64,000 nucleotides of DNA from an uncultured Clostridium sp. (GTDB taxonomy: Bacteria; Bacillota; Clostridia; UBA1212; UBA1255): assembly GCA_900543695.1 (NCBI GenBank), contig UQSG01000001.1, positions 10,136-74,135 on the forward strand, read 5' to 3'. The notes under the pieces are model-generated. The model ran no database searches. It saw only the letters and a list, made by a program, of their open reading frames with translations, and was not told the origin of the DNA. Position 1 is the first letter of the stretch; the number at the start of each line of letters is the position of its first letter. Below, in pieces: positions 45,594 to 51,771 of this stretch. The position numbers and the translations under genes were made by a program.

Positions 45594-46517
45594 CTACGGG
45601 TTTTTAAGGATTTTGCTGAAATATCCGCCGAGCTCCTCTTCCGGACAGTTCAGCTCAATACAGCGATCTTTCCCCATTCCTGTGCAGAAAACCGTTTCAT
45701 TTGTCACGGGCCGGCAAGTCATACGTCCGGGTTCAGAAAGCTTATAATAGCGGCCTTCCCCTTCAAAGGCAAAATGCACGGCCGTCAGATCATAGGATGC
45801 GTTCATGCAGGTTTTCTCCGTGCGCATCGCGGCAAGGTACTGCCGATAGGAAAGATCAATCGGATGATCCTCAGAGGCCGACGTTTCTTCCGAATCAAAG
45901 CCGGACAGCACACACGCTCCCGTTTCAACCGGACTGTAGAAAATGGGGACACGGATTTTTTCAGAGAATTTCCGAAAGGCATCGGCATCGCATTCAACAT
46001 TGAATTCCTTTTGGGCCTTCCGTTCGCAGCCTGCCATTGTTATGAACGCGTACACTTTTTGTTCCAAAAGCTCCTGCGCCGCGTCCATCAGCTCCGCAAC
46101 GTTGTTCAGCATCCCAATCGTAATAAAGACGACACTTTTGTCCTCCGCGGCTTTCAGTACTTTCTGATAAAGCTTTGCCGCGGATTCCGGCTCGTGCGTC
46201 CCAACCGGACGGTACCTCGTGCGAAAGCGCTCCGAAAGCAGCCGGTTGTAATGCTGCGTATCCGGTCCATCCCAAAATCCCTTTCGGTCGGTCATTCCGA
46301 TCGGGATGTCGTCAGCGCCGCAGTATCGCCCAATCACATCGATTGCTCCGCAGCCATACAAATTTGACGTACAATTACAGATTCCTGAAATCCTGATTCC
46401 GTATTTTTTTGAGAAATGATGAAGCAGGGCCAGCGCGCCTGCATCGTCACAGTCCGGTCCGATATCCGTATCCAGTAAAATTTCGCGTTTAACGCGTTTC
46501 AGCGGCTCGTATTCCAT
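45594..46517 (-). CDS. Inosine-uridine-preferring nucleoside hydrolase family protein
   Basis: N-terminal DTDIGPDCDDAGALAL aspartate cluster (DxDxxxDD). Start placed at MEYEPLK after RBS AAAGGAG. Confidence 0.7.
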   Translation of the reverse strand: MEYEPLKRVKREILLDTDIGPDCDDAGALALLHHFSKKYGIRISGICNCTSNLYGCGAIDVIGRYCGADDIPIGMTDRKGFWDGPDTQHYNRLLSERFRTRYRPVGTHEPESAAKLYQKVLKAAEDKSVVFITIGMLNNVAELMDAAQELLEQKVYAFITMAGCERKAQKEFNVECDADAFRKFSEKIRVPIFYSPVETGACVLSGFDSEETSASEDHPIDLSYRQYLAAMRTEKTCMNASYDLTAVHFAFEGEGRYYKLSEPGRMTCRPVTNETVFCTGMGKDRCIELNCPEEELGGYFSKILKNP

Positions 46518-47364
46518 TGACATTCTCCTTTCCTCCGTCTATTTTTCTCTTGATTTCTTTTCCTTCCGCAAACAGAGCCCGCAGCGCGCCTGTATCTTCG
46601 TTTTCCAGAGCTTCTTTATATTTTCCGAGAGCTTCAAGAAGCGTATTCAGTTCGAAAATAACGTTTTCTCTATTTTCCATGCAGAGCTCTGCCCACATAG
46701 CCTCGTTGAGCCACGCGACACGCGTAAGATCCTTGTAGCTTCCGGCAGAAAAGCCCTTATGATTCTGGGCGGTGGGACTCTTTACATATGCATTGGACAC
46801 GATGTGCGCAAGCTGGGAAGTAAACGCGATGAGCCGATCGTGTTTTTCTGCGCTTGTTATGGAGAAATGGCCGAACCCCGCAGGAGCCAGAAGCGTTTTG
46901 ATCCGGTCAAAAAGGCTCATATCGTCATATACCGGCGGCACGAGAATCATATAGGCGCCTTTAAAAAGCCCTGCTCTGCTGTATTTAAAGCCGGAATATT
47001 GCGTGCCGGCCATAGGGTGGCCGCCTACAAACGTAAAACCGTATTTCTCCGCAATGGCGAAGCAGGCCTCGCATACGCTGCGCTTCGTTCCGCAGCAGTC
47101 AATGACGACCGTTTTCTGTGAAAGATGCGGCGCGGCATTTTTCAAATATGCAATCGCTGCCTCCGGATATACGCAGAGCAGCAGTAAATCGCACGCCCGC
47201 AGATTCTGAGCATCAAGCTTCTGGTCTATGGCTCCGTCCAGCAGTGCGAACTCAAGAATCCTGCCGTCGGTATCACACCCGTATACTGCATGGCTTCCCG
47301 CGCTTTTATAAGCCTTTGCAAAGGATCCGCCAATCAGTCCCAGTCCCACAATGCCGATTTTCAT
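46489..47364 (-). CDS. tyrA: Prephenate dehydrogenase
   Basis: Rossmann motif MKIGIVGLGLIGGSFAKA. Conserved GGHPMAG. Downstream of and overlapping the DAHP synthase gene. Confidence 0.85.
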   Translation of the reverse strand: MKIGIVGLGLIGGSFAKAYKSAGSHAVYGCDTDGRILEFALLDGAIDQKLDAQNLRACDLLLLCVYPEAAIAYLKNAAPHLSQKTVVIDCCGTKRSVCEACFAIAEKYGFTFVGGHPMAGTQYSGFKYSRAGLFKGAYMILVPPVYDDMSLFDRIKTLLAPAGFGHFSITSAEKHDRLIAFTSQLAHIVSNAYVKSPTAQNHKGFSAGSYKDLTRVAWLNEAMWAELCMENRENVIFELNTLLEALGKYKEALENEDTGALRALFAEGKEIKRKIDGGKENVNGIRAAETR

Positions 47365-48365
47365 TCCGCAGTCACCTCGCGGATTTTTCTGATTTTGTCA
47401 GCAGTATCGGCGAACTGCTCAGGCGTCAGGGACTGCGCGCCGTCGCAAAGCGCGTGTACGGGATCATTATGCACCTCGATCATAACGCCGTCCGCGCCCG
47501 CTGCCGCTGCGGCCATTGCAAGCGGCTTTACCAGGCGGGCGATCCCCGATGCATGGCTGGGATCCACAACGACCGGAAGATGCGTCAGCTCCCGCAGCAT
47601 CGGCACCGCAGAGATATCAAGCGTGTTTCTCGTATAGGTCTCAAAGGTTCTGATCCCGCGCTCGCAGAGGATAACGTTTTCATTGCCGCCTGCCATAATG
47701 TATTCTGCGCTCATCAGGAGCTCCTTCAAATTGTTTGCAAGCCCGCGTTTCAGAAGAATCGGCTTGCGGGTATGTCCAAGCTCCTTTAACAAATCGAAAT
47801 TCTGCATATTCCGTGCTCCGACCTGTATAATATCCACCTGTTCAAAAAGAGGCAGATGATTTGCATTCATGATCTCAGTAATAATCGGCATGCCCGTAAT
47901 TTTTTTCGCTTCCAGAAGATATTCGATTCCGTCCGCCTTCAGCCCCTGGAAATCATAGGGAGACGTCCTCGGCTTGAAGGCGCCTCCTCTTAAAATCGAA
48001 GCGCCGGCCTCTTTCACTTTTCTCGCCACTTCGATAATCTGCTCCGGAGATTCAACGGAGCAGGGGCCGGCAATGATTGCGAAATTTCCCCCGCCGATCC
48101 GAACGTCGCCGATCTCTACGATCGTATCATCCGGATGGAATTTCCGATTGGCATTTTTAAACGGTTCGCTGATTCGCTTGACTGCCTCTACAATATCCAG
48201 GCTTTCCAGAAGCTCCGTGTCGATCTGCTTGGTGTCCCCGATCAGTCCGATGATCGTCTGATATTTTCCCTTTGAAACATGAACGTCCAGACCTCTTGAG
48301 CGGAACCATCTGCAAAGATTTTCAATCTGTTCTTCTGTTACGCCTGGTTTTAATACTGTTACCAT
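47361..48365 (-). CDS. aroF: 3-deoxy-7-phosphoheptulonate (DAHP) synthase, class I-beta with N-terminal regulatory domain
   Basis: Catalytic core AIIAGPCSVESPEQIIEVARKVKEAGASILRGGAFKPRTSPYDFQGL and ..VDPSHASG. ~70-aa N-terminal ferredoxin-like extension. RBS AAAGGAGGAA-N5-ATG. Confidence 0.85.
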   Translation of the reverse strand: MVTVLKPGVTEEQIENLCRWFRSRGLDVHVSKGKYQTIIGLIGDTKQIDTELLESLDIVEAVKRISEPFKNANRKFHPDDTIVEIGDVRIGGGNFAIIAGPCSVESPEQIIEVARKVKEAGASILRGGAFKPRTSPYDFQGLKADGIEYLLEAKKITGMPIITEIMNANHLPLFEQVDIIQVGARNMQNFDLLKELGHTRKPILLKRGLANNLKELLMSAEYIMAGGNENVILCERGIRTFETYTRNTLDISAVPMLRELTHLPVVVDPSHASGIARLVKPLAMAAAAAGADGVMIEVHNDPVHALCDGAQSLTPEQFADTADKIRKIREVTAE

Positions 48366-48382
48366 CAAAATTCCTCCTTTTG

Positions 48383-48420
48383 AAAAAAAATACCGTACAG
48401 GCGTTTCTGCCGTACGGTAT
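48383..48420 (-). terminator. Intrinsic terminator / attenuator hairpin in the 5-prime leader of the DAHP synthase-tyrA operon
   Basis: Minus-strand transcript reads GAUACCGUACGG-CAGAAACGCC-UGUACGGUAU followed by UUUUUUUU, then AAAAGGAGGAAUUUUG-AUG. There is no room for a promoter between the U-tract and the RBS. Confidence 0.6.
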
Positions 48421-48612
48421 CGTGTTCGTTCAGATTTGAAAGCGGCTTGAAAACCGGTGATTCTACGTAGCAGAAACTTCTCTTACTTTATCAGATAAAC
48501 AATAAAAGTAAAAGTAAAAAAAGTAATATGCCTTTGTAAAAAGCTTCCGTTTCAATGCGCAGCCTCCATGCTTTGGTTACAAACGGTATTGTAATACGGA
48601 ATAGATTCTCTG

Positions 48613-49830
48613 TCAACTCAAAAAGCGGTCGATCAGCTGAAATCCCTTTTCAATGTAAATCCCCGTCTCGGCCGCGTCTCGTTCATTGTATTCCGCCGAA
48701 GCGCTGCGGATTCCAGCGCGGTCTCCTTCATAGATCATGTAGGGCACCGGGGCATGCGTGTGTGTCCGGAGCGCCAGCGGTGTCGGATGATCCGGCAGTA
48801 CCAGAATCCGGTACGGCTCGCCGGTGTTTTCCAGATAGTCCCAGACCTTTTTGAGGATCCTTTGATCCAGATATTCGATCGCGCGTACCTTATTTTGAAT
48901 TTCCTGCCTGTGTCCGCATTCATCCGGCGCTTCCACATGAAGGTATACAAAATCCCCGCCGCTGCGGAAAAAGGCGATGGCGGCGTCCGCTTTTCCCTCG
49001 TAGTTGGTATCGATGTTTCCAGTTGCTCCAGGCACGTCCGGGACCTCCATGCCCGCACAAATTCCCAGGCCCTTCACAAGATCCACAGCGGAAATTACGG
49101 CGCCTTTTACGTGATGCCTCTCGTAAAAGCTGTCAAAAGACGGCTTTCTCCCTTGGCCCCAGAGCCATACGGAGGATGCAGGCCGCAGTCCATTCTGCAT
49201 CCGGCGGAGATTTACGGGATGATCCTTTAAAAGCACGCGGCTTTTCTTCATAAGGTCATAAAGCATCGCGGCGGTTTCTCCCTTTGGAAGAAAGGAAGCG
49301 ATTTTTTTGCCGGATATATCGTGCGGCGGAGTAAAATGCAGATCCACCGACTTTTGATGCTTCAAAACGACACAGTGGCGATAGCTGACGCCCGGATAGA
49401 AATGGACCTGATCGGTTCCGAGCTTTTGATCAAGAAAGCGAATCAGCTCTCCGGCCTCTGCCGTCGTAATTTCGTCCGAGCTGTAATCCACCATCGTCGT
49501 ATCCTCGTAGCGCGACTCATCGGACAGAGTAACAAGATTGCAGCGGATCGCAATATCGTCTTCTGCCAGATCGATTCCCATGCTGACCGCCTCGAGCGGC
49601 GATCTTCCGGTATAATACCGGTCCGGATCATAGCCGAGCACGGACATGTTCGCAATGTCGCTTCCGGGCGGATTCAGATGATCGGGCACTGTCTTTACGA
49701 GACCGAGCTCCGCGTATTTGGCCATATGATCCATGACCGGTTTGTTTGCCTTCTGGAGAGGCGTCTGATTTCCAAGCTCCTTTACCGGATCGTCTGCCAT
49801 TCCGTCTCCCAACAGTACAAAAAATTTCAT
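48613..49830 (-). CDS. apgM: Cofactor-independent phosphoglycerate mutase, archaeal-type (ApgM family)
   Basis: 405 aa. Alkaline-phosphatase-superfamily metal ligands (LLGDGMAD; ..HVEAPDECGH..; PDHPTP). Overall length and layout as ApgM. Confidence 0.7.
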   Translation of the reverse strand: MKFFVLLGDGMADDPVKELGNQTPLQKANKPVMDHMAKYAELGLVKTVPDHLNPPGSDIANMSVLGYDPDRYYTGRSPLEAVSMGIDLAEDDIAIRCNLVTLSDESRYEDTTMVDYSSDEITTAEAGELIRFLDQKLGTDQVHFYPGVSYRHCVVLKHQKSVDLHFTPPHDISGKKIASFLPKGETAAMLYDLMKKSRVLLKDHPVNLRRMQNGLRPASSVWLWGQGRKPSFDSFYERHHVKGAVISAVDLVKGLGICAGMEVPDVPGATGNIDTNYEGKADAAIAFFRSGGDFVYLHVEAPDECGHRQEIQNKVRAIEYLDQRILKKVWDYLENTGEPYRILVLPDHPTPLALRTHTHAPVPYMIYEGDRAGIRSASAEYNERDAAETGIYIEKGFQLIDRFLS

Positions 49831-49872
49831 CGTCTGCCGTCCTTTCTGTTTTCACATCGGCTCATTCTTATT

Positions 49873-51771
49873 TTATTCCGTTATCCTGTCCAGAAGTTTC
49901 GCAGAACGCTCAATAAAGCGTGTCATTGCATCCGCCTCCATCGGCTGATGGGCGAGCTTTGCCAGATCATAGATCTGACCGCAGATCAGCTCCGTGTCTT
50001 GGGAGGCATCGCCGCTTTCCTTTATCTGCCGCAGCTTCTGCACCGTTTTATTAGAGGCATTCAGGACGAGCGTAACGTCGTTTTCCATCGGAAATCCGAG
50101 AGAGCCGTACATTTTGGCCATCTCCTGCATTCTTCTGGCTTCTTCTGACAGAAGCAGGATCGCCGGCATCGGCGATTTAATGGCTTCAGCCCTGACGGTA
50201 AGCTTTTCATTTCCAGAAACTTTCACAAAGTCTTCTTTGCACAGCTCCGCCAGCTGCTCGAGCTCTTCTTTGGAATAGGCGCCGGACGGATCCTTCATAT
50301 TCTCCGTCACATCGGCGTCCACCCGTACGAACTTGACCTTTCCCGGATTTTTGTATTCCAGAAAGCTGATAAAGTGATTGTCCAGCGGTCCGTCCAGCAC
50401 GGCGATTTTTACGCCGCTGTCTTTATACATATTAACATATTGCGCCTGCTGAAGCGCATCGTCGATATAATGGATCGCATTCTGATCTCCCATTTCTTCC
50501 AGTGTGAGATATTCCCCGTCCGTTGTTTTGAAAACGATCGCCTCTTTCACCTTATCAAAAAACTTTTCGTCCTTCAGGCAGCCAAATTTCACAAAGGGAT
50601 TGATATCATCCCAATATTTGCAGTAGGTTTCCTTTTCCGTATTGAACATGCCGGTCAGCTTGTCCGCTACTTTTTTCGTGATATGCGCCGATATTTTATT
50701 CACGTACCCGTCGTTCTGCAAAAAGCTCCGCGATACGTTCAGCGGAAGATCCGGGCAATCGATCGCGCCCTTGAGAAGCATGAGAAACTCCGGCAGGATC
50801 TCTTTCACATTATCGGCTACAAACACCTGATTATAATAGACCTTTATTACTCCCTCGAGCGTGTCGTACTGACTCTTGAGCTTTGGGAAATACAGAATTC
50901 CTTTCAGGTTGAAAGGATAGTCAATATTCAGATGAATCCAGAAGAGCGGCTCGTTATAATCATGGAACAGCGTCCTGTAGAATTCCTTATATTCTTCGTC
51001 CGTGCAGTCCTTCACCGGTTTCACCCATAGCGGCGTCGTGTTGATCGGCTTCGGCGCTTCCGGCTCTTTGGGCGCTTCGTTTTCCGAAGCATCCTGCTTT
51101 TGCCCGGCTTTTTCCGCCTCCGCCGCTTTTTTCTGCTCTTCCTCTACATCGATAAAATACAGATTGATGGGAAGGAAGGAAAAGTATTTCCGCAGCGTTT
51201 CTCTGAGCTTGAAGGCGTCCAGATATTCTTTGCTGTCCTCCGCGATATGCAGCGTAATATAAGTACCGCGCTCTTCCGTTTCCGAAGGCGTTATGGCATA
51301 ATCCATGCCGCTTACGCTTTCCCAGTGAACGGCCTCCGCGCCCTCCTGATAGGACTTCGTATCGATTTCCACCTTATCGGACACCATAAACACCGAATAG
51401 AAGCCCAGACCAAAATGGCCGATAATCTGCGCGTCATCCGTTTTTCCCTGGTATTTTTCCAGGAAATCCTTCGCGCCGGAGAACGCAATCTGATTAATAT
51501 ATTTGACGACCTCTTCCTGCGTCATACCGATCCCGTTATCAAAAATCGTAATGGTTCCGGCTTCCTTGTCAAGAGAAACTTCAATTTTCCATTCTGTCTC
51601 TTCAACGCTCGCCTCACCTACTGAAATCAATTTTTTCAGCTTACTGATCGCGTCGCTTGCGTTCGATACGACCTCCCGCAAAAAGATATCCTTCTCTGAA
51701 TAGAGCCATTTTTTTATAATAGGAAATATATTCTCCGTACTGATTGATACGGAGCCCTGCATGTTTTCCAT
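49873..51771 (-). CDS. htpG: Molecular chaperone HtpG (Hsp90)
   Basis: N-terminal GHKL ATPase (..REVVSNASDA..GQFGVGFYS-like GHFGLGFYSVF). Middle and C-terminal dimerisation domains. RBS AGGAGG. Confidence 0.9.
   Translation of the reverse strand: MENMQGSVSISTENIFPIIKKWLYSEKDIFLREVVSNASDAISKLKKLISVGEASVEETEWKIEVSLDKEAGTITIFDNGIGMTQEEVVKYINQIAFSGAKDFLEKYQGKTDDAQIIGHFGLGFYSVFMVSDKVEIDTKSYQEGAEAVHWESVSGMDYAITPSETEERGTYITLHIAEDSKEYLDAFKLRETLRKYFSFLPINLYFIDVEEEQKKAAEAEKAGQKQDASENEAPKEPEAPKPINTTPLWVKPVKDCTDEEYKEFYRTLFHDYNEPLFWIHLNIDYPFNLKGILYFPKLKSQYDTLEGVIKVYYNQVFVADNVKEILPEFLMLLKGAIDCPDLPLNVSRSFLQNDGYVNKISAHITKKVADKLTGMFNTEKETYCKYWDDINPFVKFGCLKDEKFFDKVKEAIVFKTTDGEYLTLEEMGDQNAIHYIDDALQQAQYVNMYKDSGVKIAVLDGPLDNHFISFLEYKNPGKVKFVRVDADVTENMKDPSGAYSKEELEQLAELCKEDFVKVSGNEKLTVRAEAIKSPMPAILLLSEEARRMQEMAKMYGSLGFPMENDVTLVLNASNKTVQKLRQIKESGDASQDTELICGQIYDLAKLAHQPMEADAMTRFIERSAKLLDRITE

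Follow-up and report, generated by a model that had tools for sequence, protein, structure and literature searches.

A probable leader-peptide attenuator with tyrosine and phenylalanine codons upstream of the DAHP synthase–tyrA operon of an uncultured Clostridium sp.

The DAHP synthase–tyrA locus

We analysed a stretch of 64,000 nucleotides (nt) from an uncultured Clostridium sp. (contig UQSG01000001.1 of assembly GCA_900543695.1, positions 10,136 to 74,135; hereafter the window), focusing on the DNA between apgM and the gene for DAHP synthase. On the minus strand, apgM (48613–49830) is followed by an intergenic region of 244 nt, by DAHP synthase and by the prephenate dehydrogenase gene tyrA. 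The region between apgM and DAHP synthase carries a promoter-like sequence, a small upstream open reading frame (uORF) with a run of tyrosine (Tyr) and phenylalanine (Phe) codons and an intrinsic terminator, all of them on the same strand as the two downstream genes (Table 1). This arrangement is very probably a classical ribosome-mediated leader-peptide attenuator, which would read the charging of tRNA-Tyr and tRNA-Phe and thereby govern the aroF (DAHP synthase)–tyrA operon.

The Shine–Dalgarno (SD) sequence of DAHP synthase, AAAGGAGG (48380–48373), begins only 2 nt past the U-tract of the terminator. The ATG at position 48365 was taken as the start codon of the gene because a TTG at position 48368 reads TTA in conspecific strains; the stop codon ends at position 47361. 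The start of tyrA overlaps this stop codon by 4 nt (47361–47364; ATGA-type coupling). A signal of Tyr and Phe suits an operon that encodes these two enzymes.

Table 1. Features of the attenuator leader and of the regulated genes. Regions are numbered as in classical attenuators; positions refer to the window.
Feature	Position	Strand	Basis
Sigma-70-type promoter, −35 TTGACA (48616–48611), 17-nt spacer, −10 TACAAT (48593–48588)	48588–48616	−	11/12 matches
SD sequence of the leader peptide, GGAGG, 7 nt 5′ of the TTG start	48563–48567	−	sequence
Leader-peptide uORF, TTG 48555–48553 to UAG 48465–48463, 30 codons, encodes MKRKLFTKAYYFFYFYFYCLSDKVREVSAT	48463–48555	−	
Region 1, 5′ strand of the 1:2 helix, codons 4–15, core ACUUUUUUUACUUU (48524–48511)	48511–48545	−	
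Regulatory codons UAU UAC UUU UUU UAC UUU UAC UUU UAU (5 Tyr, 4 Phe)	48502–48528	−	
3′ strand of the 1:2 helix, AAAGUAAGAGAAGU (48489–48476), then UGCU and GUAGAA	48461–48489	−	
Region 2, antiterminator strand GUUUCUGCUACG, last four sense codons (27–30), abuts the stop codon	48466–48477	−	
Tentative anti-SD segment CCGGUUUUCAAGCCGCUUUCA, predicted partner of the SD/start region of the uORF, UGGAGGCUGCGCAUUGAAACGG (48568–48547)	48437–48457	−	minimum free energy folds
Region 3, CGUACGGCAGAAAC, middle and top of the 5′ arm of the terminator plus loop; partners region 2 or region 4	48403–48416	−	
Intrinsic terminator (3:4), 13-bp stem, one bulged U, 6-nt loop, U8 at 48390–48383	48383–48421	−	
Stretch matched full-length by covariance model R1	48381–48491	−	47.9 bits, E = 4.3e-07
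DAHP synthase with N-terminal ferredoxin-like domain, regulated gene 1 (including SD)	47361–48380	−	PF00793 3e-79, PF18152 1e-24
Prephenate dehydrogenase (tyrA), regulated gene 2	46489–47364	−	PF02153, PF20463

Promoter, leader peptide and terminator

The promoter-like sequence TTGACA-17-TACAAT is the top site of a promoter scan of positions 47300–50000 and overlaps the stop codon of apgM (48615–48613). Transcription is predicted to start around position 48581, which would give a leader of approximately 200 nt. A previous annotation of this DNA, made by a model from the letters alone (the sequence-only reading), had proposed that transcription initiates upstream of the hairpin and reads through a regulated terminator, and had placed a candidate promoter TTTACA/TACTTT at positions 48490–48530. 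The first part stands. The candidate promoter was rejected since this stretch is a run of UAY and UUY codons of the leader peptide, and the promoter-like site lies at 48616–48588 instead.

The regulatory run of the uORF consists of nine consecutive aromatic codons, which encode the peptide YYFFYFYFY. In all six frames of the whole window, this is the sole small open frame with at least six F, Y or W among eight residues. The uORF was not called as a gene in the contigs of conspecific strains, in which no gene is called anywhere in the leader, and a search of a collection of 15 billion proteins with the exact leader peptide gave no match. A second start codon close by opens a mini-ORF of five codons (ATG GAG GCT GCG CAT TGA, peptide MEAAH, 48569–48552, minus strand), which overlaps the SD sequence of the leader peptide and whose TGA overlaps the TTG start of the uORF. 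It has no SD sequence of its own and no aromatic codons and is thus probably meaningless; for lack of aromatic codons it was rejected as a leader peptide.

The terminator hairpin, GAUACCGUACGGC-AGAAAC-GCCUGUACGGUAU (48421–48390), runs straight into the U8 tract. With the tail, the predicted fold has a free energy of −18.3 kcal/mol; the stem-loop alone reaches −16.1 kcal/mol, compared with −5.0 ± 2.1 kcal/mol for 1000 shuffled sequences, none of which was as low. Thus, the hairpin with U8 tract that the sequence-only reading had noticed just before DAHP synthase is real. Among the 99 runs of at least six T in the window it belongs to the three with the most stable preceding hairpins, and its U8 is the joint-longest T-run among the twelve sites listed. 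A simple terminator scan overlooked the hairpin because of the bulge. The distance between the U-tract and the ATG of DAHP synthase is 17 nt, so a promoter cannot fit downstream of the terminator, just as had been argued. Two further hairpins followed by T6, at approximately 35990 (minus strand) and approximately 24379 (plus strand), are equally stable (−19.9 and −18.5 kcal/mol).

Conservation of the leader in Clostridia

For comparison we used 80 related DAHP synthase loci, whose proteins are 65–80% identical to that of the window and which were collected by scanning a single genome for each GTDB species. Their titles name Oscillospiraceae, Lachnospiraceae, Acutalibacteraceae, Anaerovoracaceae, Ruminococcus, Faecousia, Lawsonibacter and others. 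A uORF was scored when an open frame with at least six F, Y or W in eight residues was found on the sense strand within 450 nt 5′ of DAHP synthase, and the chance rate of Tyr/Phe-rich frames was taken from the remainder of the same loci, per equivalent stretch. Such a uORF is present in 65 of the 80 loci, while 0.0093 is expected per locus (approximately 0.75 in 80). This count is slightly conservative, since the frame of one further locus sits just beyond the stretch of 450 nt: L026 has, from position 2543 onward on the plus strand, a Tyr/Phe leader (..FGFPFAFYFYGYRKSFLRREG) and a GC-rich terminator approximately 460 nt 5′ of DAHP synthase.

Together with that of the window, 66 leaders are available, and all 66 show an SD-like motif and an in-frame start codon, which is ATG in 64. 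The peptides are 17–47 amino acids (aa) long (median 22) and consist of 18.8% Phe and 16.1% Tyr, with one Trp residue in total. A promoter, defined as at least 10 of 12 matches to the sigma-70 consensus within 105 nt 5′ of the uORF, precedes the leader peptide in 46 of the 66 loci, compared with 2.1 expected from shuffled sequences, and its offset is nearly constant in five example loci. The leader peptides of L038 and L047 (Pseudoflavonifractor/Lawsonibacter type, 37–39 aa) are called as unnamed genes in public assemblies (P0001–P0014), one of them on 62 contigs, and could be annotated as aroF leader peptides. In approximately 14 of the 80 loci (L007, L022, L033, L066, L072, L073 and others) neither a Tyr/Phe-rich uORF nor any Rfam match, T-box included, was found; some of these DAHP synthase genes may be operon-internal.

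The genes around the leader show to which transcription unit it belongs. In 66 of the 80 loci tyrA lies directly 3′ of DAHP synthase, and apgM or htpG was found within 3 kb upstream in none (0/80). Therefore, leader and hairpin belong to aroF–tyrA and not to apgM. This agrees with the proposal of the sequence-only reading that the attenuator controls the DAHP synthase operon, as the leader travels with DAHP synthase and tyrA.

A covariance model (R1) was built from a seed of 29 relatives, leaving the window out. It finds the leader of the window as its one match in 64 kb on both strands. Among the relatives it matches 57 of the 80 loci, 28 of them outside the seed, each time directly 5′ of DAHP synthase and nowhere else in 519 kb. 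The terminator is supported by covariation: in 30 aligned leaders 91.2% of the cells are paired and all 11 of 11 base pairs show compensatory changes, a level which none of 500 shuffles attained. The leader is thus kept in relatives both as a uORF (65/80) and as a covarying terminator (11/11 pairs); the sequence-only reading had proposed conservation or covariation of the leader as one of its checks.

Beyond the aromatic run, leaders from different families of Clostridia share the consensus motif AAAGUAAUAGnGAUUUGUGCUGCAA (columns 5–27 of alignment A1; window positions 48489–48466), which is homologous to the AAAGUAAGAGAAGU stretch of the window. It is kept as nucleotides in whatever frame it is read, being translated (..KSDLCCK) in some loci and lying just past a ..KK stop in others. 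This conservation can be explained by two pairing duties, because AAAGUAAUAG is complementary to the UAY/UUY codons and UUUGUGCUGCA to the terminator arm GCCGCACAG. The motif may have a further, trans-acting partner.

Between the seven conspecific strains compared, the leader is 98% identical; the Tyr/Phe run and the terminator are invariant and the spacer varies. One strain variant, A48468G, keeps the pairing of region 2 by replacing an A–U with a G–U pair.

Alternative pairings of the leader RNA

Two alternative pairings are predicted for region 2 of the leader. In the 1:2 helix, the Tyr/Phe codons ACUUUUUUUACUUU pair with AAAGUAAGAGAAGU, and the helix is extended by GGCA:UGCU and UUUUAC:GUAGAA; the predicted free energy of this duplex is −20.6 kcal/mol. 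In the 2:3 antiterminator, GUUUCUGCUACG (48477–48466), which includes GUUUCUGC (48477–48470), forms 12 bp with CGUA..GCAGAAAC (48416–48403; GCAGAAAC at 48410–48403). If folding is restricted to the RNA on the 3′ side of a stalled ribosome, at a stage when region 4 has not yet been made, the 2:3 pairing is the minimum free energy structure (−16.7).

Both pairings were evaluated in the 48 loci that passed the filters for duplex statistics; the automatic terminator finder was wrong or blind in approximately 30 loci. Complementarity of regions 1 and 2 exceeds that of shuffled sequences with a median z of −3.35, and for the 2:3 duplexes the median z per locus is −2.6. Cognate 2:3 pairs average −14.8 kcal/mol compared with −11.4 kcal/mol for non-cognate combinations, and none of 20,000 permutations was as low. 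The spacer of the window ranks first among the 48 spacers as a partner of its own terminator. On a fixed MAFFT alignment, the antiterminator is 77% paired, compared with 35–53% for slid controls.

The geometry of the leader fits an attenuator in which the position of the ribosome would decide. In the window, region 2 starts 24 nt past the end of the last Tyr codon and is immediately followed by the UAG. Across the family, the last regulatory codon ends a median of 17 nt 5′ of region 2, and the stop codon lies a median of 5 nt upstream of region 2, within reach of the ribosome in 94% of the loci. From region 2 to the terminator there are 10 to 52 nt, depending on the locus, and this segment is unconserved even within the species.

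A third helix is predicted between the SD/start region of the uORF and the tentative anti-SD segment. Its conservation is weak, with a median z of −0.54 and average energies of −9.0 for cognate and −7.1 for permuted pairs, and strain polymorphisms at this helix show no clear compensation. According to the predicted folds, it could restrict the leader to one round of translation.

A proposed ribosome-mediated attenuation mechanism

Taken together, the window contains an SD-led uORF behind a promoter, tandem cognate codons, a terminator, both the 2:3 and the 1:2 pairing and a stop codon placed next to region 2. The sequence-only reading had left the mechanism unassigned. With an SD sequence, a uORF with nine Tyr/Phe codons and the pairings 1:2, 2:3 and 3:4, it can now be read as a leader-peptide attenuator; the elements, their alternative pairings and the conservation, covariation and geometry of these across Clostridia are what the present analysis shows.

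In the mechanism that we propose, transcription would start from the promoter at 48616–48588 and the leader would encode the peptide of 30 codons. With an ample supply of Tyr and Phe, the ribosome would reach the UAG at 48465–48463 and cover region 2; on a leader free of ribosomes, region 2 would be locked up by its pairing with the Tyr/Phe codons in the 1:2 helix. In both cases region 2 would be unavailable, region 3 would pair with region 4, the hairpin with its U8 would form and the polymerase would stop approximately 17 nt short of the ATG. Under a shortage of Tyr-tRNA or Phe-tRNA, the ribosome would stall within 48528–48502 and thereby open the 1:2 helix. Since region 2 begins 24 nt downstream, a stalled ribosome would leave it exposed. 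Exposed region 2 would then pair with the emerging 5′ arm and loop of the terminator, the terminator would come too late, and DAHP synthase and prephenate dehydrogenase would be transcribed.

Several points weigh against this mechanism. That the uORF is translated, that ribosomes stall on it, that the pairings compete kinetically and that the operon responds to Tyr and Phe is inferred. At equilibrium, the full RNA always favours the terminator (−27.8 kcal/mol, compared with −20.2 kcal/mol when 2:3 is enforced). Since the terminator thus surpasses the antiterminator in stability as soon as region 4 has been made, the switch would have to be kinetic, as in textbook attenuators. Equilibrium folds of the whole leader with a ribosome mask of 30 nt at several stall sites gave no structural flip; in every case they were dominated by the terminator and by the long-range helix that joins the SD region to the spacer, and they therefore do not show the switch. 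The same long-range helix would have to coexist with the 2:3 pairing as a pseudoknot. Covariation of the antiterminator on the fixed MAFFT alignment did not exceed that of shuffles, as the register of the pairing and the length of the loop differ from locus to locus. The core of the 1:2 helix in the window (14 bp) shares only 2 nt with region 2 and the rest needs the weaker helix extension; thus, termination of an untranslated leader would be less secure here than occlusion of region 2 by the ribosome at the stop codon. Finally, the uORF of the window starts with TTG, whereas 64 of the 66 leaders use ATG.

Alternative explanations

We considered five other explanations of the leader. Each of them was given a very low probability, and none explains why a translatable Tyr/Phe frame whose stop codons are in the right place has been conserved.

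Protein-mediated attenuation of the TRAP, PyrR or BglG/RAT type, in which a protein would bind the motif of region 2, is very unlikely. The nucleotide conservation of region 2 is unusual across families and could point to a binding site, and GAUUUGUGCUGCA bears a loose likeness to the 5′ half of RAT elements. Yet a TRAP-like array is rejected on the sequence by the absence of repeated triplets, the locus has no linked gene that could encode such a regulator, and a protein-binding site would leave unexplained why 65 of the 80 loci have a translatable Tyr/Phe frame with an SD sequence and placed stop codons.

A small-molecule riboswitch, with an aptamer in the leader that binds Tyr, Phe or an intermediate of the shikimate pathway and controls the terminator, would account for the alternative pairing of the terminator and for the retention of the AAAGUAAUAGnGAUUUGUGCUGCAA nucleotides whether they are translated or lie past the stop codon. 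The pairing duties of AAAGUAAUAG and UUUGUGCUGCA, however, explain this motif already, and the conserved upstream part of the leader is a coding frame with an SD sequence, a start codon and in-frame Tyr/Phe codons in all 66 of 66 leaders. Furthermore, the 10–52 nt that separate region 2 from the terminator are not conserved even within the species, and a search of Rfam gave no matching family at a threshold as loose as E ≤ 10. We regard a riboswitch as highly improbable.

Equally improbable is that the hairpin is a plain terminator of apgM and that DAHP synthase owes its expression to unregulated leak-through or to a transcription start of its own, a scenario that the sequence-only reading had itself named as one which would refute it. 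It is true that apgM lies upstream on the same strand and that there is no other terminator between the two genes. Against this, the hairpin is located more than 190 nt past the stop codon of apgM and also past the promoter with 11/12 matches, there is no room for a promoter from the U-tract to the ATG, and neither apgM nor htpG lies within 3 kb upstream in any of the 80 loci, 57–65 of which nevertheless carry leader and terminator. With apgM upstream in 0 of 80 related loci, read-through from apgM, which had been listed among the candidate mechanisms, is abandoned as well.

The uORF might instead encode a functional hydrophobic micro-protein, next to which the terminator would be incidental, and the peptides of two relatives are indeed called as unnamed genes in public assemblies. 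We give this very little credence: outside the Tyr/Phe run neither the sequence nor the length (17–47 aa) is conserved, the motif of region 2 keeps its nucleotides while the frame shifts or the motif falls past the stop codon, and in every case a terminator and DAHP synthase come directly after the unit.

Amino acid genes of Firmicutes are usually controlled by T-boxes and the leader length of approximately 200 nt would suit, but a divergent T-box sensing uncharged tRNA-Tyr or tRNA-Phe can practically be dismissed, since RF00230 of Rfam matched neither the window nor 19 related loci, no T-box sequence lies 5′ of the terminator and the folds contain no architecture of stem I with specifier. The lack of a visible T-box consensus had already been noted from the letters, and the absence of a match in Rfam even at E ≤ 10 bears this out. 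In detail, a scan of positions 48200–48800 at E ≤ 10 returned only a chance match to a long non-coding RNA, and the window and 19 related loci gave none at the gathering score. The leader families of Rfam (Phe_leader, Trp_leader, His_leader, leu/phe leader and others) had no match in the same scans.

Neighbouring genes

The ORF that follows tyrA (45594–46523, with a weak match to nucleoside hydrolases) overlaps the end of tyrA by 35 nt (46489–46523), and no convincing terminator was found between the two. Hence the attenuated transcript may reach past tyrA. At the other side of the leader, gene callers differ on the start of apgM, for which they give 395 or 405 aa in conspecific contigs (L081–L087).

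Comparison with known attenuators

The layout of the leader, with a promoter, an SD-led uORF with tandem codons and the pairings 1:2, 2:3 and 3:4, is the same as in the attenuators of Enterobacteria (trpL–trpE, pheL–pheA, hisL, thrL, leuL and ilvL), where the stop codon likewise lets the finishing ribosome mask region 2. There is no kinship in sequence, as indicated by the lack of matches to Phe_leader, Trp_leader or other Rfam families. The host of the window is a gut Clostridium of the Gram-positive type, the regulatory run is long and made up of two amino acids (5 Tyr, 4 Phe), region 2 lies inside the uORF and the target is the entry enzyme of the pathway together with tyrA. Escherichia coli controls its DAHP synthase and tyrA genes through the TyrR repressor.

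T-boxes of aromatic amino acid genes in Firmicutes occupy the same position, with a leader and a choice between terminator and antiterminator, and ultimately read the same signal of tRNA charging. They bind uncharged tRNA directly and do not need translation, and their T-box sequence and stem I are absent from the leader of the window.

Leader peptides have been described upstream of aroF in other bacteria. As far as the account in PMC11802643 (citing Neshat 2014) goes, the aroR leader of Corynebacterium glutamicum, which contains Phe-Tyr-Phe, lies upstream of aroF, attenuates its transcription and responds to Phe and not to Tyr. By this description, it is likewise a Phe/Tyr leader peptide that attenuates a DAHP synthase operon, and it differs in being actinobacterial, in having the Phe-Tyr-Phe triplet only and in the content of the operon. 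Brewer et al. (2021, PMC8632094) reported uORFC-13-1, a candidate uORF attenuator that occurs only upstream of aroF and right before an intrinsic terminator; its 24 representatives come from Acholeplasma and unassigned environmental sequences, and its U-run encodes Phe (PMC8632094). Compared by its description only, uORFC-13-1 is alike in architecture (promoter, ribosome binding site, start codon, Phe run, terminator and aroF). It was described for Acholeplasma and for Phe only, and Rfam 15 gives no match on the window.

In Firmicutes, His-leader attenuators have been predicted for the Bacillus cereus group, Peptostreptococcaceae/Eubacteriales and Erysipelotrichales (PMC9413887, PMC2965389). 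These too represent classical leader-peptide attenuation instead of T-boxes, Clostridia included, with another amino acid, other operons and unrelated sequences. A search of the literature, with incomplete coverage, brought up no account of a Tyr/Phe leader in front of aroF or aroF–tyrA in Clostridia.

Biological significance

The mechanism itself is already known and our data do not reveal a new regulatory principle. Where the sequence-only reading had suspected a possibly novel control of the shikimate pathway, classical ribosome-mediated attenuation takes its place. The family to which the leader belongs is unannotated, absent from Rfam and widespread in Clostridia. Tentatively, the leader of the window might be the first to be recognised of a large and so far uncatalogued family of dual Tyr/Phe attenuators that would be the prevailing transcriptional control of aroF–tyrA across gut Clostridia (Oscillospirales, Lachnospirales and Anaerovoracaceae), standing in for the T-boxes or repressors used elsewhere, with a frame-independent motif in region 2 and possibly an SD-sequestering helix. 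The covariance model and the simple signature of the uORF can be used for annotating such leaders.

Feedback inhibition by Tyr and Phe is known for DAHP synthases that carry this N-terminal domain, such as that of Thermotoga maritima. If such inhibition holds here, the allosteric and the transcriptional signals would be the same. The protein identical to the DAHP synthase of the window was found in 631 blocks of a public assembly collection; the contigs returned are metagenome assemblies, one of them labelled human gut. For this very common human-gut Clostridium, the attenuator would provide a concrete, testable account of how the first committed step towards the aromatic amino acids is controlled. 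According to this account, transcription of aroF–tyrA in these organisms would be set by Tyr and Phe, and not by Trp. The attenuator also adds to the evidence that classical attenuation reaches beyond Proteobacteria and Actinobacteria.

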